From: Desulfocapsa sulfexigens DSM 10523
Lineage (GTDB): Bacteria; Desulfobacterota; Desulfobulbia; Desulfobulbales; Desulfocapsaceae
Assembly (NCBI RefSeq): GCF_000341395.1
Contig: NC_020304.1
Coordinates: forward strand, 1,140,001 to 1,172,000
Direction of reading: 5' to 3'
Length of the DNA: 32,000 nt
In this document: piece by piece, positions 2,978 to 29,602 of the stretch
Numbering within the stretch: position 1 is the stretch's first letter
Layout: the number at the start of each line of letters is the position of its first letter
Notes under the pieces: generated by a model
What the model was told of the DNA's origin: nothing
Databases searched by the model: none
Seen by the model: the letters and a program-made list of their open reading frames with translations, nothing else
Translations under genes and position numbers: made by a program

Positions 2978-3005
2978 TTTGCAACTATGACACCCCTGCT
3001 TTTTT

Positions 3006-3996: not shown

Positions 3997-4071
3997 GATT
4001 ATATGGGACGCCATAAACCCATCCCTGGGGGCTCTGCTGCGGCCGTCCAGGCCGCAGATGCCCATATAATC
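3997..4071. repeat. nested inverted repeat / structured element in divergent intergenic region
   Basis: The outer 11-bp perfect inverted repeat is GATTATATGGG (3997-4007) / CCCATATAATC (4061-4071). It encloses a GC-rich 8-bp hairpin, CTGCGGCC (4037-4044) / GGCCGCAG (4050-4057), with a 5-nt loop. A further 8-bp hairpin, AAAGCTGA/TCAGCTTT, lies at 3945-3973. Confidence 0.5.
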
Positions 4072-4284
4072 AACACGAAAAAACTCCTCCTCTGGCGGGT
4101 AGGCTGAGGATTAGTGGTAACCAGGTAACTAAAAGACTGCTTTGAAAAAGCCCGTTTGTCAATCATTTTGAACAGTGCAGGTGTTTAACTCGCTCAACAC
4201 GTGCTTGCAAATATTATTAGTCAACGATAGAGTAGCCTGGTCCATGGAGTGGGAACTCCTGATAATCTTTACATTGAGAGACAT

Positions 4285-5082: not shown

Positions 5083-5151
5083 CAAGTGACGTTCTCACAA
5101 TGAGCAATAACGAAAATTTTATACCAGCTACACTTACCTGATTATAAGGGG

Positions 5152-5934
5152 TCAGCTTGCCTTCACTGGATGTTTTTGATACGTGCTGCTTGGCTGGCCG
5201 TCAATATAGATACCCTCCAGATAAGAGAGTTTTCGAGGCAGCTGTTTCACCGAGCCCCTGGTAATCAGAAATGTTGCCTTTCGTCCGACACAAAGTCTAC
5301 CCAAATTTGTCATATTGAAAAATCTGGCTCCATTTTCCGATGCACAGCAGATGGCCTCCTCAAGTGAGTACCCTGCCTTCATGAATAATTTCATCTCTTC
5401 GACCATCGACTCACCATGAAGGATGCCGACACTGCCACTTCCAGTTCCAACGGCGAGTGTCAGGCCTAACTCTTTGGCAAAACTGAGTTGCTTCAGCTGT
5501 TCGGCAAGTATCTTTTTCCAAAACGCTTCCGCGCCGGGAATTGGCTTGCCCGGTGCCACGTAACGTGTGGAAAACCGGCAGCACACACTTCCACCTGAGC
5601 TTGCACCATCGAGACCGTTTTTGGCCCGCACGATGCTGGGAATCCACAGCACATTCCTGTCGGCCATTTTTTGGAGGTTGCCTTCACCCATGTCATATCC
5701 CTGTTCAATGGCATCGCACCCTGCCTCAATGGCCTCTTTAACGTGTTGTGGTCCGTTGGCCAGCACCACAGCCTTTTTATTCCCTCTATGCTTGAGTGTA
5801 TGGCAGAGTTTTTCATGGCTTATAAGAGAATGTTGTGCGTCATCGTCTTCAATGCTCGCAGAATAGTTGATTCTGAGAAAATCAGGTTCCGTGGAACCCA
5901 TACTGCCAGAGCTGCGGATCTCCATTGACCTCAT
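5152..5934 (-). CDS. amidohydrolase-superfamily protein, C-terminal two thirds (metal ligands substituted)
   Basis: 260 aa. It resembles COG1228-type amidohydrolases (AGCDAIEQG vs the usual aGvdsIEHG, LAVGTGSG vs GTD, RKATFLIT vs ADLVV). Its start ATG overlaps the stop of the upstream ORF (ATGA). Confidence 0.6.
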   Translation of the reverse strand: MRSMEIRSSGSMGSTEPDFLRINYSASIEDDDAQHSLISHEKLCHTLKHRGNKKAVVLANGPQHVKEAIEAGCDAIEQGYDMGEGNLQKMADRNVLWIPSIVRAKNGLDGASSGGSVCCRFSTRYVAPGKPIPGAEAFWKKILAEQLKQLSFAKELGLTLAVGTGSGSVGILHGESMVEEMKLFMKAGYSLEEAICCASENGARFFNMTNLGRLCVGRKATFLITRGSVKQLPRKLSYLEGIYIDGQPSSTYQKHPVKAS

Positions 5935-6320
5935 CCATGATTTTCTTTTTGATATCGTTGCACCAGCTCACCTATGGCATCAGTATCGGCCATTCCCTGT
6001 ACACCGTGTGCGTGGCAGTAATGGATGTGACGATCAAGGATGGTGAGCCTTTGTGCCGTATCGTCTTTTTCAGGAAATACCTGTACCTTTTCCACAACAG
6101 ATGGTGATTGTAGCAGAGAAACACTGCAGTCAACCAGGGCCGGTACAATGGTACAATGTGCAAAATCGTCTATTTCTGGTTCATCTTGGGTGGGGAGGGC
6201 ATCTACTGGACCAATAGCACTTATAAGGCCATCTTTGATCTCTAGAAAAACACGCCTGCGCACCCTGGCACCACTACCGTCAATAAATGCTCCTGCTACG
6301 ATGTACCGTGTTGTATCCAT
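5931..6320 (-). CDS. amidohydrolase-superfamily protein, N-terminal third (HxH motif lost)
   Basis: 129 aa. It has the typical amidohydrolase N-terminus (YIVAGAFIDGSG...VFLEIKDGLISAIGP...CTIVPALVDCSVSL). CSVS occupies the position of the metal-binding HxH. The two ORFs together total 389 aa, the size of one normal enzyme. Confidence 0.55.
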   Translation of the reverse strand: MDTTRYIVAGAFIDGSGARVRRRVFLEIKDGLISAIGPVDALPTQDEPEIDDFAHCTIVPALVDCSVSLLQSPSVVEKVQVFPEKDDTAQRLTILDRHIHYCHAHGVQGMADTDAIGELVQRYQKENHG

Positions 6321-6462
6321 GAAGAGTTTTTTTCCTTCTATCTGTGCTATGCTGCTTATGGATGAGTTACCTACAAATGCTGTTCATTGAAATGATACCA
6401 TTTTTACTGGGCCATCTCACATTCTTTTGAGTAGAATCAAAAAAAACCATTTTGGAGTTTTA

Positions 6463-7464
6463 ATGAAAATCACACTCAAATCCCCCCTTGATATGCATCT
6501 TCATCTGCGTGATGATGAAATGCTAAAAACCGTTGCACCACTGTCCAGTAACAGTTTTTGCGGTGCACTTGTGATGCCCAATCTTGTCCCGCCTGTTACG
6601 GACAAAGATATGGTGAAAAGCTATAAGGGGCGTATTATTGAGGCAATTGGCAGTGATTGTTTTGAGCCTTACATGACCCTGTTTTTTCAAGACAGCTACA
6701 CAAGAGCTTTTCTTGAACAGGTGAGAGACGATATTTTAGCGGTTAAACTCTACCCTGCTGGCATCACCACCAATAGTGAGGGGGGCGTAGCTGCCCTGGA
6801 TGTGGAAACGCTTCGGCCTACCCTTCAGATCATGAGTGATTTGAAGATCCCTTTGTGTATCCATGGAGAGAGCAATGGATTTGTGATGGATCGTGAGCAG
6901 GAGTTTATGCCGATCTATGAGGCCCTGGCACAGTCCTTTCCTGAACTGAGCATTGTTATGGAGCATATCACTACGGCTGCTGCGGTGGCAATGCTTGACA
7001 GGTATGATAATATTTATGCAACCATCACCCTGCATCACCTGTTGATCACCCTTGATGATGTAGCTGGCGGAATGCTCAAACCCCATCTTTTCTGCAAGCC
7101 CATTGCCAAACGTTATGAGGATCGCGAAGCACTGCTTCATGTGGCGCTGAATGCACATCCAAAAGTGATGTTTGGAAGCGACTCTGCCCCACACCCTCAG
7201 CACAAAAAAGAGGCCTGTGGATGTGCTGCGGGAGTCTTTACGGCTCCCATTGCCCTGCCTGTCTTGGCGGAACTTTTTGCCAACCATGGTCTATTGGACA
7301 ATTTGCAATCCTTTGTAAGTAACAATGCAATGAACATTTATAATATTACCCCTCCTGTTACGGAATTAGTGCTTGAAGATACTCCGATGCATGTTCCTGA
7401 AAAATACAATACTGTTATCCCCATGTATGCTGGTGAACAGATCGGCTGGAGTATCAGGAAGTAG
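6463..7464 (+). CDS. pyrC: dihydroorotase, homodimeric (E. coli PyrC) type
   Basis: All metal and catalytic motifs are present: DMHLHLRD (HxH), AVKLYPAG (carboxylated Lys), LCIHGE, MEHITT and FGSDSAPH. ATG 6463 is preceded by GGAG 7 nt upstream. The TTG at 6427 in the ORF track is probably an over-extension. Confidence 0.9.
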   Translation: MKITLKSPLDMHLHLRDDEMLKTVAPLSSNSFCGALVMPNLVPPVTDKDMVKSYKGRIIEAIGSDCFEPYMTLFFQDSYTRAFLEQVRDDILAVKLYPAGITTNSEGGVAALDVETLRPTLQIMSDLKIPLCIHGESNGFVMDREQEFMPIYEALAQSFPELSIVMEHITTAAAVAMLDRYDNIYATITLHHLLITLDDVAGGMLKPHLFCKPIAKRYEDREALLHVALNAHPKVMFGSDSAPHPQHKKEACGCAAGVFTAPIALPVLAELFANHGLLDNLQSFVSNNAMNIYNITPPVTELVLEDTPMHVPEKYNTVIPMYAGEQIGWSIRK

Positions 7465-7518
7465 AAGAAAGGAAAACCTTGGGAAAAGCACCCCAACTCA
7501 ACACTTTATTCTGTTGGA

Positions 7519-8448
7519 ATGACCATGAAAAGAAAATTCCTCATCTTTCTTCCCTCCACCTGGGCTTACATCAAGGAAGGATACCATACCCAAGGGTATT
7601 CATTGAAAAACTGGCTGCATGGTTACATCTATAGCAGGTGGATCTACCTCTATATTGGCATCGGCACCGGTGAGCATATCCTTGCAAGAAAGTTCAAGCC
7701 CTTGGCCAAATTTCTTTGTCGCTTTTTTAAACCATCTGGCAAGTCTGAATCTCCGGAAACATGTATCAGCTTTTCAGACACCTATCACGGCAAGGTCATC
7801 AGTCTTGATACGGCAAAAAAACTTGTCACCATAAACAGGAGAATTGAAGTAGCCGATCTTGAACAGGTCATCCCCTATAAGCTTGCGCGGTCAATTATTC
7901 TGGAAAACCCAGAACATATCGTGGTTATGGATTGCCCATGCCGTAAAGTACGCCCTAATCCATGTAAGCCCATTGATGTCTGTCTGGTGATCGGTGAAAT
8001 TTTCAGCCAATTTATCCTGGAACACCATCCCGCTAACAGTCGTAAAATTAACATGAAAGAAGCTGTCGAAATCCTCGAGGCAGAGCACAAACGGGGGCAT
8101 GTTCACCATGCTTTTTTTAAATCTGATCTTTTTAACCGCTTCTATGCAATCTGTAACTGTTGCAGCTGCTGCTGTGGAGCCATACAGGCCTGGCGCAATG
8201 GTACTCCCATGCTGGCCTCATCTGGCTATGTCAGCAGAAGCAATCATGCATTGTGCACAGCATGCGGGGTTTGTGTGGTGTTTTGCCAGTTTGAAGCATT
8301 AAAAATGAAAGAGGACACCATTATCATCGATGAAAAACGCTGTTTGGGTTGCGGTGTCTGTGTTACGAAATGTAAGGAAAATGCCCGATGGCTCGAACGT
8401 GATACTTCCAGAGGCACACCTTTAGAGGTTGATAAGCTTTTCCTTTAA
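7519..8448 (+). CDS. Cys-rich Fe-S protein with C-terminal 2x[4Fe-4S] ferredoxin domain, function unknown
   Basis: 309 aa. It has two CxxCxxCxxxC motifs (CTACGVCVVFC, CLGCGVCVTKC) plus the upstream Cys clusters MDCPCRK...C...C and CNCCSCCC. Confidence 0.7.
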   Translation: MTMKRKFLIFLPSTWAYIKEGYHTQGYSLKNWLHGYIYSRWIYLYIGIGTGEHILARKFKPLAKFLCRFFKPSGKSESPETCISFSDTYHGKVISLDTAKKLVTINRRIEVADLEQVIPYKLARSIILENPEHIVVMDCPCRKVRPNPCKPIDVCLVIGEIFSQFILEHHPANSRKINMKEAVEILEAEHKRGHVHHAFFKSDLFNRFYAICNCCSCCCGAIQAWRNGTPMLASSGYVSRSNHALCTACGVCVVFCQFEALKMKEDTIIIDEKRCLGCGVCVTKCKENARWLERDTSRGTPLEVDKLFL

Positions 8449-8562
8449 CATGCAGTGGTAGACAGTTCACGAATTAGACTCGCAATCAGTCATTCATCAG
8501 AATCTTTTTACCTATGCAAAAAAGATATATTCTCCTGTTCTCTTTTGTCAAGACAGTACCTT

Positions 8563-9231
8563 CTATTGAACAAAATCCTCAGGCGTGTGGCGAACAATTT
8601 CTGCATCTACCAGATAAATGACTTCTTCGGCAATATTTGTGGCATGGTCAGCAATTCTTTCCAGATGCCTGCCAACCGACAAGGCGTGCTGGTAATAATT
8701 AATCTGTTCTGGGTTGCTCAGAATAGCCTCATTGAGACGTGCATACATTTCCTGATTCAGGGCGTCTACGTCATCATCTTCGGATCGAATTTTATAAGCA
8801 AGATGCACATCCATGTTGATCAGACAGTCGATGCTTCGGGTCAGCATGCTTTCAGCCTTCAAAGCCATCCCGGTTATATCAAAGGGAATTTTCACTTCAT
8901 CCTGAAGAGCCATAAAGGCACTGCGCTCGGCAATATTGACCGCCAAATCTCCAACCCGTTCCAGCTCGTTATTGATTTTCAAAACTGTGATAATAAAACG
9001 CAGATCAATGGCCACAGGCTGATAGAGGGCCAGGATACTGAGACAGGTCTCCTCTATCTCTACTTCCATTGCATCTATCTCAGCATCGTTATCTTTCACA
9101 TCAAGGGCCATTTTCTCATTGTGCTGAACAATGGAGAGAGTCGCGCGATATACACGGTCCTCAACGTCTTCCCCCATTTGAAGAATCTTATTCTTCAGAT
9201 TTTCTATATCTCTCTGCAGATGCCTGGACAT
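8563..9231 (-). CDS. phoU: phosphate signalling complex protein PhoU
   Basis: 222 aa. It has the typical PhoU two-repeat helical architecture (ERVGDLAVNIAE / ERIADHATNIAE) and sits directly downstream of pstB. Confidence 0.9.
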   Translation of the reverse strand: MSRHLQRDIENLKNKILQMGEDVEDRVYRATLSIVQHNEKMALDVKDNDAEIDAMEVEIEETCLSILALYQPVAIDLRFIITVLKINNELERVGDLAVNIAERSAFMALQDEVKIPFDITGMALKAESMLTRSIDCLINMDVHLAYKIRSEDDDVDALNQEMYARLNEAILSNPEQINYYQHALSVGRHLERIADHATNIAEEVIYLVDAEIVRHTPEDFVQ

Positions 9232-9250
9232 ACTCCTGCCCCCTGATAAA

Positions 9251-10036
9251 TTAACCGAACCTGCCGGTAATATAATCTTCTGTCTGTTTCTCTTTCGGTT
9301 TTGTAAAAATACGTTTGGTTTTGCCGGACTCGATCAACCGGCCCTCATAGAAAAAAGCTGTTGTATCAGAGACTCTGGCAGCCTGCTGCATGTTATGGGT
9401 AACAATGACGATGGTATATTCCTTACGCAGTTCACCTATGAGATCTTCAATGTGAGTGGTGGATTTCGGGTCCAGAGCCGAGGCCGGTTCATCCATGAGC
9501 AGAATCTGCGGGTCAACTGCCAGGGCCCTGGCTATACACAAACGCTGCTGCTGACCGCCGGAAAGTCCCATGGCGTTTTCAGTCAGGCGATCTTTCACCT
9601 CTTCCCAGAGCGCTGCCCTGCGAAGACTTTTTTCAACCACATCCATCATTTTATTTTTATGCATTTTATGGATGCGAGGCCCATAGGCAACATTGTCAAA
9701 AATTGACTTGGGAAAGGGGTTGGATTTCTGGAAAACCATGCCAACCTGTTTACGCAATTCAACGATATCCTCCTTTTCATCATAGATATCCTGCCCGTTA
9801 ATCAGCATTTTCCCAGTAAGCCGGGTCTTTGGAATGATATCATTCATCCTGTTCATACAGCGGAGAAATGTTGATTTCCCGCAGCCGGATGGTCCTATCA
9901 AGGCTGTGACCCTCTGCGGGATAATATCCAGGGAGATGTTGAACAGGGCCTGGCTCGGACCATAATAAAAACTGACATCCATAGCCTGGATAACTGCTCC
10001 GCTCTCCGGTTGTGCTTCCTCTTGCCTGTTTACCAT
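9251..10036 (-). CDS. pstB: phosphate ABC transporter ATP-binding protein PstB
   Basis: Walker [13 protein letters not shown] signature [14 protein letters not shown] and Walker B ILLMDEP are present. The sequence is highly PstB-like throughout. Confidence 0.95.
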
Positions 10037-10881
10037 TTGTATTTTTTCCGAAAATAGATACGTATCACTATGGCCCCAATATTCATCCCCAGAACCAGAG
10101 TGAGCAGGACCAGGGCTGTTCCGTATTGAAGAGGCAAAACCTTTTCCGCCTCCGGGTGCTGTGTCGCCAAAATATAAAGATGATAAGGAAGGGCCATTAC
10201 CTGGTCGAAAAGAGAACCTGGCATTTTAGGGAGATAAAAAGCCGCCACAGTAAGGAGAATGGGTGCTGTTTCACCGGCAGCCCTACCGATAGCCAGGATC
10301 GAGCCGGTTATCATCCCTGAAATGGAATAGGGCAGAACATTGGTCCAGATTGTTTCCCACTTAGTGGCTCCAAGTGCCAGACTGGCCTCACGAAACCCGC
10401 GCGGCACGGCACGGAGGGCCTCTTCACTAGTGACTATAATAATGGGCAGAACCATACAAGCAAGAGTGAGGGAACCCGCCAGAATGGAGGTGCCAAAACG
10501 ACAGAAAATAACGAAAAGACCTAAACCAAAAAGGCCATAGACGATGGATGGCACCCCGGCAAGGGTTATAATAGCCAGCCGTACCAGTTCTGAAAAACGA
10601 TTCTGATATGCATATTCCGCCAGGTAAATGGCACAGCCAATTCCAAGTGGCAGAGCAACGAGGATGGTGCCGACGGTAAGATAGAAAGTCCCCACAATGG
10701 CTGGCAGGATTCCGCCTTCTGACCCGCTGCGCCGGGGGAAAGTAGAAATGAAATCCCAATTGATCACAGGCAAACCATGGCGAATAATATCAAAAAGAAT
10801 GTAGCTGATACAGATGACAATACCATAGGTGAGCAACCGCAGTATCAGATAAGAAATATTCTGTGAAAACTTTCCGGTCAT
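10030..10881 (-). CDS. pstA: phosphate ABC transporter permease PstA
   Basis: A 283 aa polytopic permease in the second permease position of the pst operon. It overlaps pstC by 4 nt and pstB by 7 nt. Confidence 0.9.
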
Positions 10882-11744
10882 TGTGACATACCATATTTTT
10901 TCAGGACTACCCGGGAAAAGGCATTCAGGAGAAAAGTGACGAACAGCAGCATAAGGCCAATCCAGAATAGTGCCTGGTAATGGTGACTGCCAAAGGGAAC
11001 CTCTCCCATTTCAGCAGCAATGGTGGCGGTCATGGTACGAATAGGATCCAGAGGAAAGAGGGAGATAATCGCGGAGTTGCCGCTGACCATCAGCACAGCC
11101 ATGGTCTCTCCGATAACCCTGCCGATACCGAGCATAATCGCAGCAATGATTCCTGGCAGGGCCGCCGGCACCGTCACTCTGAAAATAGTCTGCAGTTCAC
11201 TTGCCCCAAGGGCAAGGGATGCCTGTTTAAAGGATTGTGGCACACTTGCCAGCGCATCCTCGGAAATAGTTATAATTGTGGGCAGGGCCATAAGAGCCAG
11301 CAGCAGAGAAGCTGTCAGGGCGTTGAGGCCTGAGTTGAGGCCAAAGGTCTCTTTTACCAGGGGAGCAAGAACCAATAGACCGAAAAATCCCAAGACCACC
11401 GAAGGAATACTGGCGAGGATTTCAATAAAAGGCTTGAGAAATTCCCTTTCTACTGGTTTTGCCACTTCAGAGATGTAAATAGCACCCACAACAGATAACG
11501 GGATTGACAACAGCATGGCAAGCAGAGTGACCAGGGAAGAGCCAACTACCAGTGGATACAGACCAAAGCGCTCTTCCTGAAAAGAGACAGGAACCCATGC
11601 GGAATCAAAGAGTTTTCCGATTCCAGGGTCAAAAGCAAAGGGCATGGCCTCTTTACCCAGAAAGAGAAAAATCAGGGCGACAATAAGAATACTGATGGAT
11701 GCTGTACCGATCAGAAGCATCCGCATGAATTTATCTATGCGCAT
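10878..11744 (-). CDS. pstC: phosphate ABC transporter permease PstC
   Basis: A 288 aa polytopic permease and the first permease after pstS. It carries the EAA-like loop SEDALASVPQSFKQASLALGA. Confidence 0.9.
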   Translation of the reverse strand: MRIDKFMRMLLIGTASISILIVALIFLFLGKEAMPFAFDPGIGKLFDSAWVPVSFQEERFGLYPLVVGSSLVTLLAMLLSIPLSVVGAIYISEVAKPVEREFLKPFIEILASIPSVVLGFFGLLVLAPLVKETFGLNSGLNALTASLLLALMALPTIITISEDALASVPQSFKQASLALGASELQTIFRVTVPAALPGIIAAIMLGIGRVIGETMAVLMVSGNSAIISLFPLDPIRTMTATIAAEMGEVPFGSHHYQALFWIGLMLLFVTFLLNAFSRVVLKKYGMSQ

Positions 11745-11903
11745 TATTGTTACCGACAGTTTAACTTAAACTCGTTTCGTTTTTTTTTACAAAATGAATA
11801 TAGCTATACTTGATTTTTATTTGTTAGCCTGTTCCGCGCTGCAAAGTTCAACCAGCGCATCAACGATGTTTACATTCAGGTAGTCCCAAGGCGACCCCTG
11901 CCA

Positions 11904-12800
11904 CTACTGTTTGTTTTCATTTGACATTACAGAAACATAGCCAGATTCGTAAACGATATTTTGTCCCTGTTCACTGAGTGTAAACTCAACAAAATCTTTT
12001 GCAGTTCCCTGAGCTTCTCCACTGGTATAGAGAAAAAGGGCTCTGGCAATGGGATAGCTTCCATCTTTTACCGCGTTATCAGAAGGTGCAATCGCCGTCC
12101 CTCCGTCCTTGTCCAGAATGGAGATGGCTTTGATCCTGTCAGCAGAGTTTTTCACATATCCAAGCCCTACATAGCCGATAGCTCCGGTATCTGCAGCAAC
12201 GCCCTGCACCAGTGCAGATGTTCCTGGAAGGAGGCGGGCCCGGGGGGTATAATCCTGCCGATTCATCACATGTTCCTGGAAAAAGACATAAGTTCCGGAA
12301 CTGGATTCCCGGGAGAACACCAGCAGGTCCTGATTTGCTCCCCCCACCTCCTGCCAGCTCGTTATTTTTCCTGTAAAAATACCCTGAAGCTGCTCCATGG
12401 AAAGGGCCTCCACCGGATTTTGCGGATGCACAATCACGGCTATACCATCAAGGGCAACACTGAGCTCCACAGGTACCCTTCCCTTTCCGGAAGCCAATTC
12501 CTTCTCTTTCTCATTAATTCTTCGTGAAGACGCACAGATATCAGTTGTGCCGTTAATCAGACCAGCGATACCAGTGCCGGAACCGCCTCCGGTAACAGAA
12601 ATTTCCACATCCTTATGCAGTTTCATAAACTCCTCAGCCCAGGAACTTACCAGATGGACCATGGTATCTGATCCTTTAATGGTAAGATAGCCAGTCCCAG
12701 CCGATTCTTTTTTTTCTTCATTCTGTGGCGCCCCGGAATCACATCCGGAGAAGCCTAAACACAATAGGACTAAAAAACAGTATGTATAAATGTTTCGCAT
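11904..12800 (-). CDS. pstS: phosphate ABC transporter substrate-binding lipoprotein PstS
   Basis: PstS/PBP-like-2 family motifs are present (GSDTM, GGGSGTG, ESSSGTY). The lipoprotein signal is LGFSGC. ATG 12800 is preceded by GGAGGGG. The TTG at 12821 in the ORF track includes that RBS and is rejected. Confidence 0.85.
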   Translation of the reverse strand: MRNIYTYCFLVLLCLGFSGCDSGAPQNEEKKESAGTGYLTIKGSDTMVHLVSSWAEEFMKLHKDVEISVTGGGSGTGIAGLINGTTDICASSRRINEKEKELASGKGRVPVELSVALDGIAVIVHPQNPVEALSMEQLQGIFTGKITSWQEVGGANQDLLVFSRESSSGTYVFFQEHVMNRQDYTPRARLLPGTSALVQGVAADTGAIGYVGLGYVKNSADRIKAISILDKDGGTAIAPSDNAVKDGSYPIARALFLYTSGEAQGTAKDFVEFTLSEQGQNIVYESGYVSVMSNENKQ

Positions 12801-13166
12801 GAAATCCCCTCCAGGTTTCAATTAACCGCCCTTCCAATATTCATCAGCCGCCTGTCTGCTCGTTCATTGTTTCACTACACTATCTGTTTAGAAACAGAAT
12901 CATGGTTTGACAGACCGAAGCGGACAAACAATGTCACCGCTTCCTCATTAAATCAGCCCAACAGCCTTAAAGTCAAGGAATACCTGTCAAACCAACCGAC
13001 CAACCCTCCTCCTAACACTTTTTTAATCTGTCAGGAGCCTGCAAGACCTCACCCTAAAACTTATAAAAAAACAAAGGGATCATTTTTTGTTTCTTGGCAG
13101 GGTATATTCACTCTGCTATAACAGAGGACCTTATTTGCCTTGTAAAAACAAACAAAAGGATATTGC

Positions 13167-21943: not shown

Positions 21944-23725
21944 ATGAAAGTACGTTGGAAAATCACCCTGTTTTTATTTGTCTTTCTTGTAGCGACTTGT
22001 GTCTACGCAGGTGGAGGAAGCCAGGCATCGCAGCCGACTGGTGGAGCCTTTCCGCCGGATTTTGCAAGTTATCAGGATGCGGATATGACCAGCGTGGGCG
22101 AGATCCTTAAACACCGGGTCAGTCATACGCCATTCAACCTGGTCGCCACACTCATCTTCCTGGTTGCTATCATTCACACATTTCTCAGTAGTAAGTTTCT
22201 CTACTATGCTCATAAATGGAAGGCCGAGCATCAGAAAGAGATCGAGACAGGTCGGGAATCGGAGGACTCTACCCATCTCCTCTCGGAAATATTTCATTTT
22301 TTAGGCGAGGTTGAGGTCGTTTTCGGGCTCTGGGCCGTGGCTCTCTGTGGTGCTGTTGTCTTTTTTTTCGACTGGCATACCTTTGTCAACTATGTTAGCG
22401 GAGTCAATTACACGGAACCGATGTTTGTCGTGGTGATCATGACCCTGGCCTCTTCCCGTCCTATTTTGAAGCTCTCGGAAAATCTCATGAGCCGCATCGC
22501 TGCGGTTTTCAACAGCACCTTGGCTGCCTGGTGGCTGACCATCATGACCCTGGGACCGATTCTCGGTTCCTTCATAACCGAACCAGCCGCCATGACCATT
22601 TCCGCACTACTGCTGGCCCGCAAATGCTATGAGTTGCAGCCCAGTGACAAATTCAAATACGCCACCATCGCTCTTCTCTTTGTCAACATTTCAGTCGGCG
22701 GCACCCTGACTCATTTTGCCGCGCCACCAGTCTTGATGGTTGCAGCCCCCTGGAATTGGGACCTTCCCTTCATGTTTACCACCTTTGGCTGGAAGTCCGT
22801 CATTGGTATTATTATTTCAAACACCATGGTCTTTCTGCTCTTCAAAAAAGAAATTGCCGGCCTGGAAAAGAAATTCAAGATGACCCTGCTCAAGGATGAA
22901 ATCAAAGAGAAGTATATCCACAGCGAATATCTAAAAAAAGACTTGCAGATGGCCGAGGAGCGTATCGCTAAAGATCTCCAGCAAGAGTATGATCTTATCA
23001 AGGAAGCCGCCAGGGAGTCTACCCTGACCGCCGGCTGCTGGAAGGATGATGAAGACTGCACATTGCTTGAAGAGACCTTTGAGCAGGAGTTTGAGAACCT
23101 CAGGATGCAGCAGATGAGTGTCTCAGTGCCGGGCCTGCTCCCCCGGGACAAGCGACCCAAAATGAATGACCCCAACTGGGACAATCGCAGTGGGGAGGTA
23201 CCTGGCTGGATCATGGCCATCCATGTGGCCTTTATGGTCTGGACCATTGTTAATGCCCATTATCCTGCTATCTTTGTCTCCGGTATGCTCTTCTTCGTCG
23301 GCTTTGCCCATGTCACCTGGCCCTTCCAGAACACGGTTAACCTGAAACCACCCATGCTGGTAGGCTTCTTTCTTGGCGGCCTGGTGATTCACGGTGGCTT
23401 GCAGGGATGGTGGATTGCTCCAGTGTTGGGCAGCCTGGGCGAACTCCCCCTGATGTTAAGCGCCACAGTTCTCACCGCTTTTAATGATAATGCTGCCATC
23501 ACTTATCTGAGCACCTTGGTACCGGGCCTGACCGACAACCTCAAGTATGCGGTGGTAGCAGGTGCCGTTACCGGGGGTGGCCTGACCATTATCGCCAATG
23601 CTCCCAATCCGGCCGGACAGGCAATCCTGAAAAATTACTTCAGTAATGGCGTGTCTCCGATAAGGCTGTTGCTTTATGCCTTCGGGCCAACGGTCGTCAT
23701 GACGCTCTGCTTTTTATTTCTCTAG
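21944..23725 (+). CDS. large polytopic membrane protein, possible cation/proton antiporter-like transporter (family uncertain)
   Basis: 593 aa. It has a signal-like N-terminus and about 12-13 hydrophobic helices. A charged insert of about 120 aa, predicted coiled-coil, lies in the middle (KKEIAGLEKKFK...EQEFENLRMQQ). RBS AAGGAA is upstream. It resembles the putative Na+/H+ antiporter (DUF1504-like) family only by recollection and this is unverified. Confidence 0.55.
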   Translation: MKVRWKITLFLFVFLVATCVYAGGGSQASQPTGGAFPPDFASYQDADMTSVGEILKHRVSHTPFNLVATLIFLVAIIHTFLSSKFLYYAHKWKAEHQKEIETGRESEDSTHLLSEIFHFLGEVEVVFGLWAVALCGAVVFFFDWHTFVNYVSGVNYTEPMFVVVIMTLASSRPILKLSENLMSRIAAVFNSTLAAWWLTIMTLGPILGSFITEPAAMTISALLLARKCYELQPSDKFKYATIALLFVNISVGGTLTHFAAPPVLMVAAPWNWDLPFMFTTFGWKSVIGIIISNTMVFLLFKKEIAGLEKKFKMTLLKDEIKEKYIHSEYLKKDLQMAEERIAKDLQQEYDLIKEAARESTLTAGCWKDDEDCTLLEETFEQEFENLRMQQMSVSVPGLLPRDKRPKMNDPNWDNRSGEVPGWIMAIHVAFMVWTIVNAHYPAIFVSGMLFFVGFAHVTWPFQNTVNLKPPMLVGFFLGGLVIHGGLQGWWIAPVLGSLGELPLMLSATVLTAFNDNAAITYLSTLVPGLTDNLKYAVVAGAVTGGGLTIIANAPNPAGQAILKNYFSNGVSPIRLLLYAFGPTVVMTLCFLFL

Positions 23726-23889: not shown

Positions 23890-25308
23890 TCACTTTCTAG
23901 CGTCCTCCACCAGATTTTTATGTAAAGCAGCAACCGCCTTCTGGAAATCTTGTTCTTCAACGACAAACTGGATATCCACCTGGCGCATGCATTTATGCAG
24001 ACCAAGGATATCCACGCCAGCATTGGCTAGGGCGTGAACTGCAGTGGGCAAAACCCATGTGTCGGCCATGTTAGTGCCGATTACGGATACCAGGGCTACC
24101 TTTTTCACCAGGATATCGGCATTGGGAAAAGATTGCTGTATGGAACTGGTAAGTTTTTTGATCCTTCCCAATGGCTCAGCCACATAATGGGTCAGGGTGT
24201 TGGCGTTGCTGTCTTTTGCCAGGTAACGTATTTTAAGATTTGTGAAGTGTTTGAGAAGTTCGGAGTCATGGTCCCAGCGGCCGACCATGTCCTGATCCCA
24301 CACCTCGATGCCGGTAATCCCCTGGCGACTGGCAATGATTTCCACCCTGGCATCCTCACTCTTGTAGGTGTTGGTGATCAAGGTACCGGGGTGATCCGGT
24401 TCAAAGACATTTTTGATTCGCAGAGGGATGTCGGCTTTCCGCATTCCCCGCGCAGCCCCGGGATGAATAGCTTCCATGCCAAGATCCGAGAGCTGATCCG
24501 CCACATCATAGTTGGTATCTCCAATGACCTCGACCTTGTCTGCCCCTACCATATTGGGATCACCACTACTCAAATGGTATTCCTTGTGAATGACCCCTTC
24601 TCTTGCTCCGGTGAGCACAGCAATCCTGCTGAAGGTGATTTCCGTATAGCCGCGGTCATAGGTGCCCATAATACCTTCTTTACACTTGGTATAGCCTGTG
24701 ACAATGGGAAGTTCAGTACTCAGGTCAATATCATTGAAATGTTTTTTTATTACTTCGTCGAAAGAGAGCTGCTCCGTCTCCATCCATCCGGAAAGATCGA
24801 CGAATCGTGCGTTAACTCCTTTGGCGTTCAGGATAAGATATGAATTATGAGCACTGTGAGCTTCGCCAATGGCAGAAAGCATTTCCCGCACTGTCATTAA
24901 GTGTTCACTCAACTGGAAATGACCAAAAGAGCAGAGTCTGGTCAGATCGAGCAAACAGTTGCGAACCCCTTCGATACGCTCTTTGACAAAGCGATCCGCC
25001 TGTATGACATCCAGGCCTAAACCTTCAAATCCTTTATTAATCTCACACATATACTGGCTCACCCGCGAAATGGCATCGCCCCAGGCCCAGGAATCATCGT
25101 CTCTGGAAAAAAGAGAGTATATTCCAGACTTTCTAGACTTTTTATGCTCAAGGAGATCATTGGTTATACCGCTATAGGCAGAAACCACAATGATTCTGTT
25201 ATACAGAGCTTCCTTGGTTCGGGTCCCAAGCAAAACATTGTCAAGCACCTTGTCGAACTGGCTCATGGAGGTGCCGCCGATTTTTTCAACGGTATGGATT
25301 CCCATCAT
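23890..25308 (-). CDS. ask: aspartate kinase, ectoine-cluster type (Ask_Ect)
   Basis: 472 aa. The N-terminal VEKIGGTSM kinase motif and C-terminal ACT-like region are present. Its ATG overlaps the ectC stop (ATGA), as in ectABC-ask operons. Confidence 0.9.
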
Positions 25309-25697
25309 TCCTCCTCAATCAGCTCATAAGATCCTTCACTGTCGTGGGTCTCACGGCCAGTTACCGGCGGATTAAAGGCGCAGATCAAACGCATATCTTC
25401 TGTACCGCCCCGCAGAATATGGCGGTCATTATTGTTAAGGGCATAGATCACACCGTCGTGGATTTGATGCGTTTCGCCACTGGCCAGATCTTCAATTGTG
25501 CCATTACCCGCGACACAATACACCGCCTCCAGGTGGTTTTTATACCAAAGCCTAAGCTCTGCCTTAGCCGGGATGATGGTTTCGTGGAAAGAAAAGCCCA
25601 TACCGTCTTTTTTGAGCAACAGCCGGCGTGACGTCCAGCCGTCTCCTTTCACTTCACGCTCAGTTCCCAAAATATCTTTTCTATCTCTTACTATCAT
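25305..25697 (-). CDS. ectC: L-ectoine synthase
   Basis: A 130 aa cupin: [16 protein letters not shown]...[22 protein letters not shown]...[11 protein letters not shown]. It is highly EctC-like. The start overlaps the ectB stop by 1 nt (TGATG). Confidence 0.95.
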
Positions 25698-26971
25698 CAG
25701 AATTCACCTGTCAGGTTTTCTCTTTTTTCCTGGAGGATTTCGCCGATGGATTTGTCAACAATGGCGATACCGCGTAACAATGTTTCTTCATCAATGGTCA
25801 AAGCAGGCAAGAATTTTACCACCTGATCATCGGCTCCGGCCAGCTCAATAACCAGACCATTTTTAAAACATTTTTCAGAAATCTGACCACTCAAGCCATG
25901 CTCTGAAATCTCAAGACCATAGATCATGCCACGCCCACGAACCGATGCGTTCAGTTCCGGATACTTTTCAGCAATGGCCATCAATTCTTTTTCGATGACC
26001 GCACCTTTGTACTTTACAGCCTCGGAAAGATCGATACTGTCCCAGTAATGGAGAGCCTGATGGGAAGCGACGAATGCAAGGTTATTACCACGAAAGGTAC
26101 CGGTATGTTCACCGGGTTTCCACTGGTCAAGATCCGGCCGCATGAGAATAAAAGCCAAGGGCAGTCCGCCACCGATTGCCTTGGACAGACAGACAATATC
26201 AGGCTTTATTCCCGCCTCTTCAAAACTGAAGAAATCACCACTGCGTCCGTTGCCCACCTGGATGTCATCGACAATCAGGAGGATATCAAACTCATAGCAT
26301 ATGTTGGCCAGCTCTTTGAGCCATTCTGTGCTTGCGATATTCACCCCGCCTTCTGCTTGGATGGTTTCCAGAATTATGGCTGCAGGTAGATCCAACCCGC
26401 TGGAATTGTCGACAAGCATCTTGCGCAGCAGCTCAAGGGTATTACAATCCGGCCCGAGATAGCTGTCAAAAGGCATAAAGCTGACATTGGAACGACTGAT
26501 GTACGCCTCATCCCGATACTGACTGTTGCCGGTGATAGCCAGCGACCCCATGGTAAGCCCATGATAGCCATTGGTAAAGCAGACAATATTGGAACGCCCT
26601 TTGACCATACGGGCAAGTTTAAGCGCGGTCTCCACCGCATTGGTTCCGGTGGGTCCGGTAAACTGGATCTTGTATTCCAGATTCCGGGGTTCAAGGATGG
26701 TATCATTGAACTTCTGCATGAACATCTGCTTGGCAACGGTGGCCATGTCCAAACCATGAACCAAACCATCGCTTTGCAGGTATTCGATCATAGCCTGGGA
26801 AATCTGCTCATTATTATGGCCATAATTCAAGGTGCCGGCTCCGGCAAAAAAATCAATGTACTCATTGTCATTCTCATCAACCATGATTGAGCCCTTGGCT
26901 GATTTGAAGATGACCGGAAAGGAGCGGATATAGCCTCGCACCTGGGATTCCATATTTTCAAAAATACGCAT
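25697..26971 (-). CDS. ectB: diaminobutyrate--2-oxoglutarate transaminase
   Basis: A 424 aa class-III aminotransferase. The N-terminus is [19 protein letters not shown] and the PLP lysine context is [14 protein letters not shown]. It sits between ectA and ectC. Confidence 0.95.
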
Positions 26972-26992: not shown

Positions 26993-27514
26993 TTAGTTCT
27001 TGTTAATAAATGTAAAAGGTCCAATGTGCATGAGATGTTCAACAGCTTCAGCGGCACCAAGATCCTCGGCCGTAAAAAATGGCTTTTCTGAAAATGTATG
27101 CTCAGCAGCAAAAAATTTGGCAACTGAACGGAACAGACCGATTGAAGCCTGGTTATCCGGGCTAATGGTCGCCTCAAGAAAATCTGGCCGTACTGCATTT
27201 AGAAGGGAAAGGAGCATGCTTCTGCCCACCCCTTTCCCCTGAAACTTGCGTGCCACACCCACCTGCCAGATGAACAAGGTGTCAGGCTGCCCTGGCGGGA
27301 TGTAAGCTGTGACATAGCCACATGGTATTCCTTCACACTCTGCAATGACGCATGTTTCCTCAAAATGTCTGGCCATCAGGGCATAATAGTAGGTGTCATG
27401 TACTGAAAGCACCTTTGAGTCCACGGCCAGCAACTGCATGGTGGTGGCATCGTAACTTGTTGGAGAACGGAAGCTTATCTGCTTATGCAGGTATTGATTT
27501 TCTTTTTTTGACAT
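26993..27514 (-). CDS. ectA: L-2,4-diaminobutyrate acetyltransferase
   Basis: A 173 aa GNAT. The blocks DTLFIWQVGVARKFQGKGVGRSML, TISPDNQASIGLF and LMHIGPF match EctA signature regions (compare Halomonas EctA DTYFLWQVAV..., TITPDNEASWGLF, LVRIGPF). Confidence 0.9.
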   Translation of the reverse strand: MSKKENQYLHKQISFRSPTSYDATTMQLLAVDSKVLSVHDTYYYALMARHFEETCVIAECEGIPCGYVTAYIPPGQPDTLFIWQVGVARKFQGKGVGRSMLLSLLNAVRPDFLEATISPDNQASIGLFRSVAKFFAAEHTFSEKPFFTAEDLGAAEAVEHLMHIGPFTFINKN

Positions 27515-27618
27515 CGTAACTATCTCTTTTCATTTTTTTATTATAAATACTGCAACTTACTTCCTCGAACAGGAGTCTTCCCCTTAGAGCTCCAATTGGT
27601 AGTAGATTTTACTTCAAT

Positions 27619-28803
27619 TTATTGTATCCATTGCCCGGATGTTTTGATTTCAGCAAGATCATCAAGCCAGCCGCCTGTGTCGGTTAATTGCCTGACCAAT
27701 AGTCGGGAAATTTCTTTATTGTGGCCTGTCCGGGCGTGGATCTGTTTCAGTATCAATTTGTTGCCGATACGGCCACAAATCTCGAGTTTACCGATGTTGT
27801 GACCAATGACAAACTTGAATCGTTTGGCATAGCCATCCATCTGCTGTCGGGCCTTATCTACCAGATCAACCCCACGTTTCAGCGGTACTTGAAAATGATG
27901 ACGAACCCGTGAGACAGGCATACACTGGTAGAGATAGTAGGGACTCACCCCGATACGCAGCAGGCCATTCATCAAATCTACAAGAGTTCGCTCATCGTCA
28001 TTTACTCCTTTAAGCAACACAGCTTGATTGTTCACCGTGATACCTGTATTTCTGATGCGACTCACCGCCTCCGCAGCCAACGTAGATATTTCATTAGGAT
28101 GGTTAAAATGAGTTGAGATAAAAAGGGCTTTCTGGCTGTTAAACTTAGCCAGAAGATCAATGAGTTCATCATCAAAAAACCGGATGGGGTAGCTCACCGG
28201 TGCTCTGGAAGCAATACGGACAAAACTAAGATGATCGATATCCTGCAAGGCCGTAAGCATCTGCCGCAGCACCTTGGTGGGTAGCATTAAGGGATCGCCT
28301 CCCGATATTACCACATTAGTGATTTCAGGATGCGATGCGATATATTGTACAGCCTTCTGAAAGTTATGAACGGTTTTGTCGTTTGTCATGCCAACCATTT
28401 TCTTGCGGAAACAGTGGCGGCAATACATGGCACAGTAATTGGTGGCCACAACCAGGGCCGTATATTCATATTTATGTAATACGCCGTTACCCTTATCATG
28501 CCTATCGTCACCGTAGGGATCTTGTGTGGTTTCTCCCATCTGTCCGTTTAGTATTAATTCGTCAGTCTGCGGAATGCAGAGTTTTCGGATAGGATCATCC
28601 GGGTCATTACGATCAATAAGACTCAGGTAATAACGGGGGATATTCATGGGATGAAGGTCTATCACCTTACTCATGTTTCCGCCTTCATCAACAGTCAATG
28701 GCAGATAGTCCTTAAGTCCCTCCACACTGGTGATATTATTCTTCTGTTCTTCCTGCCAGTTCTGTAATTGCCAGTTTATCCGAGCAAGTTGTGTAAATTG
28801 CAT
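27619..28803 (-). CDS. KamA-family radical SAM aminomutase (lysine 2,3-aminomutase-like, substrate unknown)
   Basis: The radical-SAM motif is CAMYCRHC. Other motifs are the SAM motif VVISGGDPL, NTHFNHPNE-like STHFNHPNE, PYYLYQC and the PLP-lysine context HNIGK. ATG 28803 (MQFTQLARINWQLQNWQ) is preceded by AGGA. The ORF-track GTG at 28884 is probably too far upstream. Confidence 0.85.
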   Translation of the reverse strand: MQFTQLARINWQLQNWQEEQKNNITSVEGLKDYLPLTVDEGGNMSKVIDLHPMNIPRYYLSLIDRNDPDDPIRKLCIPQTDELILNGQMGETTQDPYGDDRHDKGNGVLHKYEYTALVVATNYCAMYCRHCFRKKMVGMTNDKTVHNFQKAVQYIASHPEITNVVISGGDPLMLPTKVLRQMLTALQDIDHLSFVRIASRAPVSYPIRFFDDELIDLLAKFNSQKALFISTHFNHPNEISTLAAEAVSRIRNTGITVNNQAVLLKGVNDDERTLVDLMNGLLRIGVSPYYLYQCMPVSRVRHHFQVPLKRGVDLVDKARQQMDGYAKRFKFVIGHNIGKLEICGRIGNKLILKQIHARTGHNKEISRLLVRQLTDTGGWLDDLAEIKTSGQWIQ

Positions 28804-28992
28804 AGGTTTCCTTTTAGAAAGTCTTGTATAGCTCTTTTTTTGAACGGCTTCGTTAAACATTGCAAGAATGCTACCTGGAAGCACAACAGAGAGGATGGGG
28901 CCAGAAAGTAATACCTATCTATTTATTTAATTCTGAACAAAAACAGGATGTGACTTATGCAGAAAAAGATGACTGTGCATCTATATAAAGGT

Positions 28993-29022
28993 ATTATAGC
29001 GGTATATTACCAGCCCAGACAA
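28993..29022 (-). promoter_or_regulatory. candidate sigma70 promoter for the kamA-like gene
   Basis: The minus strand reads TTGTCT (29022-29017), an 18-nt spacer, then TATAAT (28998-28993). This implies a leader of about 185 nt. Pattern match only. Confidence 0.3.
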
Positions 29023-29142
29023 GGCTTCTTGCAACCCAGCCGATACGCCCCCCCCCTGCATGACGCACTTTGACCAATCATTTCACAGAAGCAATGGCCT
29101 GAAACACCAATCCTCTCTGTGCTCTAGCAATAATAGCATGTC

Positions 29143-29172
29143 GGGTTCCCGGCTTGGAGCGGAAACCCTTTT
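29143..29172 (+). terminator. orphan terminator-like hairpin (plus orientation)
   Basis: GGGTTCC (29143-29149) pairs with GGAAACC C (29161-29168) with one bulge and an 11-nt loop, and is followed by TTTT (29169-29172). No plus-strand gene ends nearby. Confidence 0.3.
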
Positions 29173-29245
29173 CCAAACTGCCATAATGCCTTATAACTGA
29201 TCGCTGACCCGCTGCGCACATTAACAATGTCTCTGTCGATGGGGA

Positions 29246-29602
29246 TCATTTAACACCTCCAAAAGCCCGACTATAACCAGCGACAATAAACACTAGAACC
29301 AAAACACATAAAAGAACAGACATGCCAAAACGATCAGACATCTCTTTTTGATTAGGCAAGCGCAGGCGTCCCTTTTCTCCAACTTGAGGGACCTTAAACA
29401 TTCTTCTTTTCTGTATTTTTTTTCTGTGACGATATATGCAGGCACAAAGAAGACAAGCTATTGAAAACAAACCTTTGGCATAAACATACGCAAAAGGCAG
29501 GATTGCACTGGCAAGAGATCTTTCCCAGACAAACCATCCAGGAAGACAAAGTGGACCGATGTAGAGAACGCCTATCAGGACTGCAGCAAAAATAAGGAAC
29601 AT
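29246..29602 (-). CDS. hypothetical small membrane protein (doubtful)
   Basis: 118 aa with 3 hydrophobic segments and a basic loop (RHRKKIQKRR). There is no recognisable RBS and no family motif. A TATAAT hexamer of the upstream palindrome lies 32-37 nt before the ATG. Confidence 0.35.
   Translation of the reverse strand: MFLIFAAVLIGVLYIGPLCLPGWFVWERSLASAILPFAYVYAKGLFSIACLLCACIYRHRKKIQKRRMFKVPQVGEKGRLRLPNQKEMSDRFGMSVLLCVLVLVFIVAGYSRAFGGVK

Follow-up and report, generated by a model that had tools for sequence, protein, structure and literature searches.

An orphan KamA-family aminomutase upstream of ectABC-ask in Desulfocapsa sulfexigens may form an unrecognised beta-amino-acid solute

The window analyzed here is a stretch of 32,000 nucleotides of the Desulfocapsa sulfexigens DSM 10523 genome (contig NC_020304.1, positions 1,140,001 to 1,172,000). 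On its minus strand we found the ectoine genes ectA, ectB and ectC together with an ect-type aspartokinase gene, and all four passed their NCBIfam cut-offs (Table 1). Upstream of ectA on the same strand lies kamX, which codes for a KamA-family protein, and the open reading frame coordinates agree with the distance of 104 nt that an earlier note on this DNA had given. The ATG start of kamX is backed by a Shine-Dalgarno-like AAGGAAA just 5' of it and by the N-termini of its homologues; an alternative in-frame GTG at 28884 would yield a protein of 421 amino acids. The gene product is 100% identical to a D. sulfexigens database entry named 'KamA family protein'. When kamX was compared with its 96%-identical relative, we obtained a dN/dS ratio of 0.089, which is similar to those of the ect genes. 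The gene is under purifying selection, and this ratio rules out that kamX is decaying. Its sequence features are deterministic facts and do not constitute a chance pattern.

Table 1. Features of the kamX-ect locus (positions are those of the window)
Feature	Position	Strand	Description
kamX	27619..28803	(-)	KamA-family radical-SAM/PLP aminomutase, orphan 'Met-293' clade, 394 aa, ATG start
C124-AMY-C128-RH-C131-F-R133 codons	28405..28434	(-)	[4Fe-4S] motif and alpha-carboxylate Arg134 equivalent; invariant in clade
Met295 codon	27919..27921	(-)	PYYLYQC-M295; column of LAM Asp293 (ligand of lysine epsilon-ammonium)
H335-N336-I-G-K339 PLP-lysine loop	27787..27801	(-)	two residues shorter than that of LAM; within FVIGHNIGK
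kamX-ectA spacer	27515..27618	(-)	exactly 104 nt; kamX upstream of ectA-ectB-ectC-ask, same strand
ectA	26993..27514	(-)	diaminobutyrate acetyltransferase; TIGR02406 130.8 bits, cut-off 120.6
ectB	25697..26971	(-)	diaminobutyrate-2-oxoglutarate transaminase; TIGR02407 643 bits, cut-off 552
ectC	25305..25697	(-)	ectoine synthase; PF06339 and NF009806
ask_ect	23890..25308	(-)	ect-associated aspartokinase; NF006614 728 bits, cut-off 536

Upstream of kamX, consensus scanning gave one sigma-70-like promoter candidate on the minus strand (28993..29022; TTGTCT, an 18-nt spacer, TATAAT), which is a pattern match with 10 of 12 matches from scans that returned fewer promoter-like sites than expected from shuffling. 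In the kamX-ectA spacer, the consensus scan detected neither a terminator-like nor a promoter-like site on the same strand. Rfam searches of the whole window (gathering thresholds) and of positions 27400-29400 (E up to 5) returned nothing credible and, in particular, no Na+ or c-di-AMP riboswitch near kamX such as has been described for ablA and eam. With this Rfam result, a riboswitch or leader upstream of kamX was rejected. No conserved sequence is shared between the region upstream of kamX in the window and that in its 78%-identical relative (locus L084).

Among the KamA models, kamX passed only the general family model TIGR00238 (268 bits, cut-off 199.2). It failed the models for AblA/lysine 2,3-aminomutase (LAM; TIGR03820, 260.5 bits vs. 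a cut-off of 525.4), Eam (TIGR04368, 250.9 vs. 650), BlsG (TIGR04468, 258.4 vs. 600) and EpmB (TIGR03821, 230.9 vs. 369.3). In the tree, the kamX clade is monophyletic and stands apart from LAM/AblA, BlsG, EpmB and KamY. The four failed models stand for the groups against which the earlier note had wished to see the protein classified. The clade is compact (57-78% identity) and occurs mostly in marine anaerobes; judged by name, its hosts are mostly marine or saline taxa. All 98 of the 98 core-clade sequences carry methionine at position 293 (LAM numbering). Among the plasmids of PLSDB, we found no kamX relative above 37% identity. No paper in the searched literature characterizes the kamX clade or ties a KamA-like gene to ect clusters, which agrees with the earlier remark that no described ect cluster with such a gene was known to the writer. 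The AlphaFold2 model of kamX (pTM 0.82, with low confidence at residues 85-137 and 297-302, pocket elements included) gave PDB 2A5H as top Foldseek match (E 8e-25, TM 0.70).

This structure is the LAM of Clostridium subterminale (KamA), the only solved relative of kamX (E 5e-71, TM 0.70), which shares about 30-35% identity with it. The kamX residues were checked by translation and by alignment to this enzyme. It can be seen that the equivalents of E86, D96, Y113, the CxxxCxxC motif, R130, H131, R134, SGGD, R198, H230/H233, Q258, Y287/288/290 and K337 are kept, along with most scaffold residues. The SAM motif (S167-GGD170) is invariant in the clade, and K339 aligns to the PLP lysine K337. These data confirm that the radical-SAM cluster, the arginine following it, the GGD motif and the PLP-lysine context are retained, as had been read from the sequence before. 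The differences concern other parts of the protein. In LAM, D293 and D330 are the ligands of the epsilon-ammonium group of lysine. The first is replaced by methionine (M295), as the earlier note had seen, and the D330 column holds Val/Ile or Gly, varying with the aligner, and no acid. The glycine loop is two residues shorter, and R112, R116 and D165 are replaced by Lys, Thr and Asn, respectively. GVND-D270 stands in place of Cys268, and the other zinc-site cysteines of LAM (C375, C377, C380) are absent together with the LAM_C domain (PF12544). There are no C-terminal cysteines at all, which bears out the reported lack of the C-terminal CxCxxC motif.

The earlier statement that no acidic residue occurs in any register holds for the kamX protein but not for its clade, in which 91 of 98 sequences have Asp or Glu near the PLP lysine. 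At the position three residues before this lysine, 87 of the 98 sequences have Asp, 4 have Glu, 2 have Lys and 4 have Asn. The asparagine is confined to the kamX protein and its 96%-identical relatives (4 sequences), and Asn336 is a peculiarity of the Desulfocapsa lineage, not of the clade. That kamX is atypical of its clade at this residue counts against the best reading of its function. With the pocket assigned by sequence alignment, it is very unlikely that kamX acts as a 2,3-aminomutase of lysine or glutamate. The earlier proposal of a substrate other than these two is supported by the failed models and by the missing Asp/Asp and Lys/Asn signatures.

The other characterized relatives resemble kamX in part. 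AblA resembles kamX in belonging to the KamA family and in having its gene within an osmolyte operon (AblA/AblB, N-epsilon-acetyl-beta-lysine), but no AblB-type acetyltransferase adjoins kamX in the window. The bacterial glutamate 2,3-aminomutase Eam belongs to the same family, has its lysine-binding aspartates replaced and leads to a beta-amino-acid osmolyte; its signature, however, is Lys293/Asn330, where kamX has Met and Ile/Gly. The signature, which the earlier note had also given, fits P0205, the sole protein of this kind in our sample, although its score of 556 bits with the Eam model does not reach the cut-off of 650. The glutamate 2,3-aminomutase of methanogens, on which Tunckanat et al. 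worked in 2022, is said to make a beta-amino-acid osmolyte and reportedly carries an N-terminal extension of roughly 160 amino acids, which is absent from kamX. BlsG (arginine 2,3-aminomutase) shares with kamX the missing D330 acid and the short loop before the PLP lysine, but it keeps Asp293 and branches elsewhere, with KamY and LAM. EpmB, which acts in beta-lysylation of EF-P, also lacks the C-terminal zinc domain but keeps Asp293 and has Glu at 330, and neither efp nor epmA was found next to kamX in the loci surveyed.

The closest relatives of the kamX clade (41-49% identity) form an 'Arg-293' sister clade with members from Methanothrix, ANME-1, Syntrophoarchaeum, Bathyarchaeia, Thermodesulfatator and Desulfurobacterium and with a rhizobial plasmid 'lysine 2,3-aminomutase'. 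Both clades have the motifs QC-x-PV.RV..FQ and (A/S)KRF(K/R)(F/Y)...H..GK and the short loop in common. The sister clade has Arg at position 293 and usually Arg, Lys or Gln three residues before the PLP lysine, whereas the kamX clade has Met and Asp/Glu/Asn. With Arg/Lys in one clade and Asp/Glu/Asn in the other, the charge is swapped, which one would expect if the substrate had changed. The sister clade is also an orphan in NCBIfam, and as a clue to its substrate its neighbours offered only unrelated, random-looking housekeeping genes.

Our neighbourhood survey covered 101 core-clade loci. Here, we found kamX beside ect genes in four of them, which are the window, L081/L082 (96% identity) and L084 (78%); the remaining 97 have no ect gene within 5 kb. 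The kamX-ectA junction differs among the three ect-linked lineages: one has the 104-nt spacer, another a sigma-70 gene and the third an AAA_33 gene. Positions 27574-27617 of the spacer stand in place of the 1153-bp sigma-factor gene of the 96%-identical relative, and in L084 a MarR gene lies upstream and an MscS gene downstream. When EctA, EctB, EctC and Ask were searched by tblastn against 80 genome and 80 metagenome loci, none was detected outside the Desulfocapsa-related group, and a general ect linkage of the clade was rejected on this result. The link to compatible-solute genes that was drawn earlier from the ect locus is real and extends past ect to ablA-ablB, but ect adjacency itself is confined to one related group. 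A function specific for diaminobutyrate or an ectoine intermediate, which the earlier note had also considered, is therefore unlikely for the clade.

Other neighbours recur more widely. Genuine ablA-ablB genes adjoin kamX in five loci and in two gene orders, and the AblA proteins concerned score 552-781 bits on TIGR03820. In 8-10 loci, kamX has a MarR orthologue next to it, and these include two-gene MarR-kamX units. The commonest neighbours, commoner than ect, are glnHPQ plus RpiR and a non-ribosomal peptide synthetase (NRPS) with thioesterase and PPTase. The glnH/P/Q genes (glutamine-type ABC transporter) adjoin kamX in about 14 of the 101 loci and in two gene orders. These glnHPQ-kamX(-rpiR-kamY) arrangements have short gaps, RpiR is present in 12 loci, and all eight complete GlnH proteins tested passed the equivalog cut-off. 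KamY, a second orphan KamA paralogue, adjoins kamX in eight loci.

With moderate confidence, we propose that kamX is a catalytically competent, beta-amino-acid-forming radical-SAM/PLP 2,3-aminomutase of new specificity that was recruited into osmolyte operons. By analogy with LAM, the [4Fe-4S] cluster (C124/C128/C131) would cleave SAM reductively, and the 5'-deoxyadenosyl radical would take the C3 hydrogen from the PLP-bound aldimine of the substrate. K339 would hold PLP as internal aldimine, R133 would hold the alpha-carboxylate of the substrate, and the amino group would then move from C2 to C3. The distal pocket is rebuilt, with Met295 for Asp293, Ile/Gly for Asp330, the shorter loop and His335 plus Asn336 (Asp in relatives), and with such a pocket the substrate should not be lysine, arginine or glutamate. 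A neutral or polar L-amino acid is more likely. Our best guess is conversion of L-glutamine to beta-glutamine because glnHPQ adjoins the gene and because Met together with Asp/Asn/His would suit a carboxamide and not a carboxylate. As a beta-amino acid, the product would be metabolically inert. If kamX is read with, or co-regulated with, ectABC-ask in Desulfocapsa, it would add a second solute, or a solute precursor, to the osmostress response. That enzymes of the KamA family make osmolytes is documented for AblA and Eam (PMC9337991; PMC1224877; Tunckanat 2022 as cited elsewhere). Since the pocket argues against lysine, arginine and glutamate, kamX may make a beta-amino-acid solute that has not been recognized. 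Only tentatively, and as a possibility that we would not call probable, we extend this to the whole Met-293 clade, which may be a natural 2,3-aminomutase of a neutral amino acid (most plausibly L-glutamine, giving beta-glutamine) and may form a beta-amino-acid compatible solute that is so far unrecognised in Bacteria. It would then act as a one-gene, MarR-controlled osmolyte module that was recruited independently into ectABC-ask and into ablAB operons, and an NRPS pathway would have borrowed it.

To our knowledge, the characterized radical-SAM 2,3-aminomutases are specific for lysine, arginine or glutamate only. If our proposal is true, the kamX clade, which occurs widely among marine sulfate/sulfur-cycling and symbiotic bacteria, represents a fourth, strongly conserved specificity class and would extend the chemistry of the family. 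It could reveal an overlooked beta-amino-acid solute of anoxic marine sediments, and kamX would be a new kind of gene joined physically to ectABC-ask. A beta-amino acid would become accessible to biotechnology by a natural route, and the residue pairs of the family (Met + Asp in the kamX clade, Arg + Arg/Lys in the sister clade, Asp/Asp in LAM, Lys/Asn in Eam) provide a ready handle for the engineering of specificity.

The glnHPQ/RpiR and NRPS neighbourhoods are as compatible with uptake/catabolism or with natural-product supply as they are with the synthesis of an osmolyte. In a salvage scenario, kamX would interconvert an imported amino acid and its beta-isomer, so that beta-amino-acid osmolytes released by neighbours are used or glutamine/glutamate is fermented, and the proximity to ect and abl genes would reflect general solute turnover. 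The short-gapped transporter arrangements in two gene orders, RpiR and the second orphan aminomutase KamY speak for such a scenario. Moreover, clostridial LAM catalyzes the first step of lysine fermentation, and its reaction is reversible. Since 2,3-aminomutases are reversible, the direction of flux is not given by the family. We consider salvage rather unlikely, however, since no beta-amino-acid transaminase, dehydrogenase or CoA-transferase recurs beside kamX in the surveyed loci and since kamX of the window, like that of L084, sits inside a biosynthetic ect operon without a transporter. The MarR-kamX units and the ablAB linkage also fit synthesis better.

It is less probable still that kamX modifies the ectoine pathway, either by turning L-2,4-diaminobutyrate or N-gamma-acetyl-diaminobutyrate into beta products (3,4-diamino or acetylated ones) or by drawing off flux. 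In three lineages the gene immediately precedes ectA, the asparagine lineage is the ect-joined one, and a bulky Met at 293 with an acid near the PLP lysine might accommodate a shorter basic side chain. Against our main reading, the Asp/Glu at the third position ahead of this lysine could be a ligand for a short basic side chain such as that of diaminobutyrate or ornithine. However, the ect-less majority of core-clade loci, NRPS and glnHPQ loci included, has the same pocket at 57-78% identity. The 78%-identical ect-linked relative keeps Asp, so that Asn does not track ect linkage.

That kamX is a divergent LAM, a second AblA binding lysine through other residues, appears highly improbable: it shares the family, and most clade members carry one acid near the PLP lysine, but both lysine-binding aspartates are gone, the AblA model gives 260 vs. 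525 bits, the enzyme would be redundant beside genuine AblA in five loci, and the kamX protein is without even the single acid.

We give equally little credence to a role of kamX in providing a beta-amino acid that is built into a non-ribosomal peptide. In about 14 loci from Desulfovibrio, Magnetospirillum fulvum and metagenomic relatives (57-62% identity), an NRPS gene (~3200 aa) lies divergently beside kamX and is followed by genes for a type II thioesterase and a PPTase. However, the window and the loci of close relatives have no NRPS, thioesterase or PPTase near kamX, and NRPS supply would therefore be one use of the clade's product rather than the role of kamX. As a clue to the substrate we set aside the code of the single A domain beside kamX (DASTIAAVC), which resembles a tyrosine code, since this domain need not be the module that loads a beta-amino acid.

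In the window, kamX stands on the minus strand, 104 nt upstream of ectA as the earlier note had placed it, and ectB, ectC and an ect-type aspartokinase gene (ask) follow. An alternative in-frame GTG at 28884, 5' of the ATG, would extend the protein to 421 residues; the ATG is favoured since homologues begin there and a Shine-Dalgarno-like AAGGAAA precedes it. The 'KamA family protein' of Desulfocapsa sulfexigens DSM 10523 matches the product at 100% identity.

Coordinates of features in the window and in surveyed loci (L) with kamX homologues
Sequence	Feature	Position	Strand	Remark
Window	kamX	27619..28803	minus	ORF from ATG, 394 aa
Window	ectA	26993..27514	minus	above NCBIfam cut-off
Window	ectB	25697..26971	minus	above NCBIfam cut-off
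Window	ectC	25305..25697	minus	above NCBIfam cut-off
Window	ect-type aspartokinase (ask)	23890..25308	minus	above NCBIfam cut-off
Window	kamX-ectA spacer	27515..27618	minus	exactly 104 nt
Window	segment replacing sigma gene	27574..27617		44 nt
Window	sigma-70-like site	29022..28993		TTGTCT, 18 nt, TATAAT
Window	G9 homopolymer	29048-29056	minus
Window	118-aa ORF	29246-29602	minus
Window	Na_H_antiport_3 family gene	21944-23725	plus
L081	segment with sigma-70-family gene	9187-10339		1153 bp; gene of 393-399 aa
L084	AAA_33 kinase-like gene	5867-6448
L084	MscS-type channel gene	10138-11685
L068	Arg-293 clade gene	10001-11098
L001	KamY	11778-12881
L006	KamY	8820-9890
L015	KamY	8772-9872
L028	KamY	1382-2563
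L047	NRPS	1-9534	minus
L051	NRPS	1-9577
L057	NRPS	1203-9821

Translation and alignment to the lysine 2,3-aminomutase of C. subterminale (LAM, PDB 2A5H), the sole solved relative, recovered the full motif list of the earlier note. kamX carries the radical-SAM motif C124-AMY-C128-RH-C131, R133 (LAM R134), S167-GGD170 and K339, which aligns with the PLP lysine K337. It reads PYYLYQC-M295 where LAM has D293 and FVIGHNIGK in contrast to FVVD330-APGGGGK; D270 takes the place of the zinc ligand C268, and the C-terminal CxCxxC is absent. Pfam detected the radical-SAM core alone and no LAM_C domain. Among the LAM residues compared, E86, D96, Y113, R130, H131, R134, S169-D172, R198, H230, H233, Q258, Y287, Y288, Y290 and K337 are kept and R112, R116, D165, C268, D293 and D330 are altered. 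An AlphaFold2 model (pLDDT 77.6, pTM 0.82) gave a TM-score of 0.70 to 2A5H. kamX also passed the KamA family model TIGR00238 (268 bits, cut-off 199); it is a KamA-family member whose catalytic scaffold is intact and whose distal pocket is rebuilt. Every function-specific NCBIfam model scored far below its cut-off: AblA (260 bits, cut-off 525), arginine 2,3-aminomutase (258, 600), glutamate 2,3-aminomutase (251, 650), AblA_like_2 (238, 396) and EpmB (231, 369). The dN/dS ratio against the 96%-identical relative was 0.089, similar to that of the ect genes (0.09-0.14), and kamX therefore codes for an intact enzyme kept up by selection.

Many homologues (57-78% identity) were found in Desulfobacterota (Desulfuromonadales, Geopsychrobacteraceae, Desulfobulbales, Desulfobacterales, Desulfovibrio), in marine Gammaproteobacteria (Thiodiazotropha, Sedimenticola, Neptuniibacter) and in Campylobacterota, Magnetospirillum fulvum and others; a library clustered at 50% identity held one full-length representative of this core clade among 949 KamA-family representatives. 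When we aligned 183 KamA-family ORFs from fetched loci with LAM, EpmB, the arginine 2,3-aminomutase BlsG and a rhizobial homologue, all 98 core-clade members carried Met at the D293 position. This Met-293 clade is monophyletic and lies far from LAM/AblA, BlsG, EpmB and KamY, a second orphan KamA paralogue. Its sister is a diverse Arg-293 clade (41-49% identity) from Methanothrix, ANME-1, Syntrophoarchaeum, Bathyarchaeia, Thermodesulfatator, Desulfurobacterium and rhizobial plasmids. In both clades the PLP loop is two residues shorter than that of LAM, and a charge swap three residues before the PLP lysine separates them: the Met-293 clade has Asp (87), Glu (4), Asn (4) or Lys (2) there, the Arg-293 clade usually Arg, Lys or Gln. 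Asn is confined to the window protein and its 96% relatives, four sequences in all; therefore the earlier statement that no acidic residue occurs in any register fits the kamX lineage, not the clade. The Lys/Asn signature given there for glutamate 2,3-aminomutase (Eam) agrees with P0205, the one Lys-293/Asn-330 protein of the sample, which scored 556 bits against the Eam model (cut-off 650). The Arg-293 clade is large and uncharacterised (L062-L080, L118-L128), and its bacterial members include thermophiles. Its pocket, with Arg at 293 and usually Arg or Lys near the PLP lysine, suggests an acidic substrate; the genes around it offer no hint.

Synteny was examined in 101 core-clade loci, drawn from genome and metagenome contigs and from those that encode the nearest proteins. 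Of 10 kb of flank that a locus could have, 7.2 kb was present on average; the loci, and with them all counts, are phylogenetically non-independent. Genes of the ect pathway within 5 kb of kamX were limited to the window, L081/L082 (96% identity) and L084 (78%). Between kamX and ectA lies a 104-nt spacer in the window, a sigma-70-family gene in L081/L082 and an AAA_33 gene in L084, where a MarR gene lies upstream of kamX. Since the junction differs in each lineage, the linkage has been retained during remodelling, and it is confined to one related group. An ectoine-pathway-specific role, one of the options in the earlier note, is thus unlikely. The note's link to compatible-solute genes held and proved wider than ect: genuine ablA (552-781 bits, cut-off 525) with ablB accompanies kamX in five loci, in the orders MarR-ablA-ablB-kamX and kamX-ablA-ablB. 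By a rough estimate, far fewer than 1% of genomes should by chance carry the gene within 5 kb of either of two given loci, and therefore nine loci beside osmolyte clusters, in at least three distinct arrangements, would exceed chance. Other recurrent neighbours were MarR orthologues (8-10 loci, including divergent two-gene MarR/kamX units in Gammaproteobacteria), glnH-glnP-glnQ before or after kamX (about 14 loci; each of the 8 complete GlnH proteins tested exceeded the equivalog cut-off), an RpiR regulator (12 loci, often with glnHPQ), KamY (8 loci) and an NRPS of ~3200 aa accompanied by a type II thioesterase and a PPTase (about 14 loci, Desulfovibrio/Magnetospirillum-type).

By analogy to LAM, the enzyme would cleave SAM reductively and abstract the C3 hydrogen of a substrate-PLP aldimine; the amino group would then migrate from C2 to C3 via an azacyclopropylcarbinyl radical, and the hydrogen would be returned. 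The substrate must reconcile osmolyte operons, a glutamine-type importer and an NRPS. L-glutamine fits these contexts and the Met/His/Asp(Asn) pocket best, and we propose it tentatively, as a reading more likely wrong than right. beta-Glutamine is a zwitterionic osmolyte of Methanohalophilus, and beta-amino acids form metabolically inert pools (PMC1224877). Alternatively, the Asp/Glu close to the PLP lysine might hold diaminobutyrate or ornithine, both short and basic; further candidates are N-acetylated diamino acids and alanine. In engineered alanine 2,3-aminomutases, the second aspartate is replaced by His or Gly. Lysine and arginine are disfavoured because Asp293, kept by AblA, EpmB and BlsG, is lost, and glutamate because residue 293 is not basic and an acidic residue lies near the PLP lysine. 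Together with the function-specific model scores, this makes a new specificity, neither lysine nor glutamate as suggested earlier, well supported. kamX would work in the manner of AblA, Eam and a methanogen glutamate 2,3-aminomutase (reported by Tunckanat et al. 2022), yet it fell outside each of them in membership tests. Some ablA and eam genes are under Na+ riboswitch control (PMC9337991). The literature searched describes neither the Met-293 clade nor an ect cluster with such a gene, and kamX is a good target for experiment.

A pattern scan found a sigma-70-like site upstream of kamX and neither terminator-like nor promoter-like sites on the minus strand of the spacer. Since this evidence consists of pattern scans, kamX-ect co-transcription is regarded as plausible rather than established. 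The 44-nt segment stands in place of 1153 bp with the sigma gene in L081, and homology picks up again 59 nt before the ectA ATG; this indel is placed exactly at the kamX stop codon. The sigma protein is RpoD/RpoS-like and below all equivalog cut-offs. Against L081, dS was 0.17 for kamX and 0.03-0.09 for ectA, ectB, ectC and ask (a 2-5 times difference), which suggests that the two sides of the junction have a mosaic or recombinant history. The G9 homopolymer, which precedes the promoter-like -35 hexamer of kamX by 26 nt, is G6 in the 96% relative. Directly upstream of kamX, the 118-aa ORF looks hydrophobic; an NCBIfam search gave no match, and its homologue in the 96% relative has no recorded Pfam family. 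The antiporter-family gene, directly past the ect operon and convergent with ask, is kept in that relative. In L084, ask is followed by the channel gene, which encodes a cNMP-binding domain.

KamY (356-393 aa, Glu at 293, ATNIGK loop) is under all equivalog cut-offs, with arginine 2,3-aminomutase as best model (340-380 bits, cut-off 600). It directly adjoins kamX in at least eight loci (L001, L006, L015 and L028, also L002, L018, L089 and L095), so two uncharacterised aminomutases stand in tandem. In the NRPS of Desulfovibrio and Magnetospirillum, a single A domain precedes several C-T units that lack one; the A-domain code, DASTIAAVC, is tyrosine-like. In these loci, the type II thioesterase and PPTase genes lie downstream of kamX. 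On the contig of P0011, a 77% kamX relative paired with KamY comes after genes for two MttB-family methyltransferases, corrinoid proteins, a SAM-methyltransferase-like protein, an amidotransferase of asparagine-synthase type and AdoHcy hydrolase, a context of quaternary amines and methylation.
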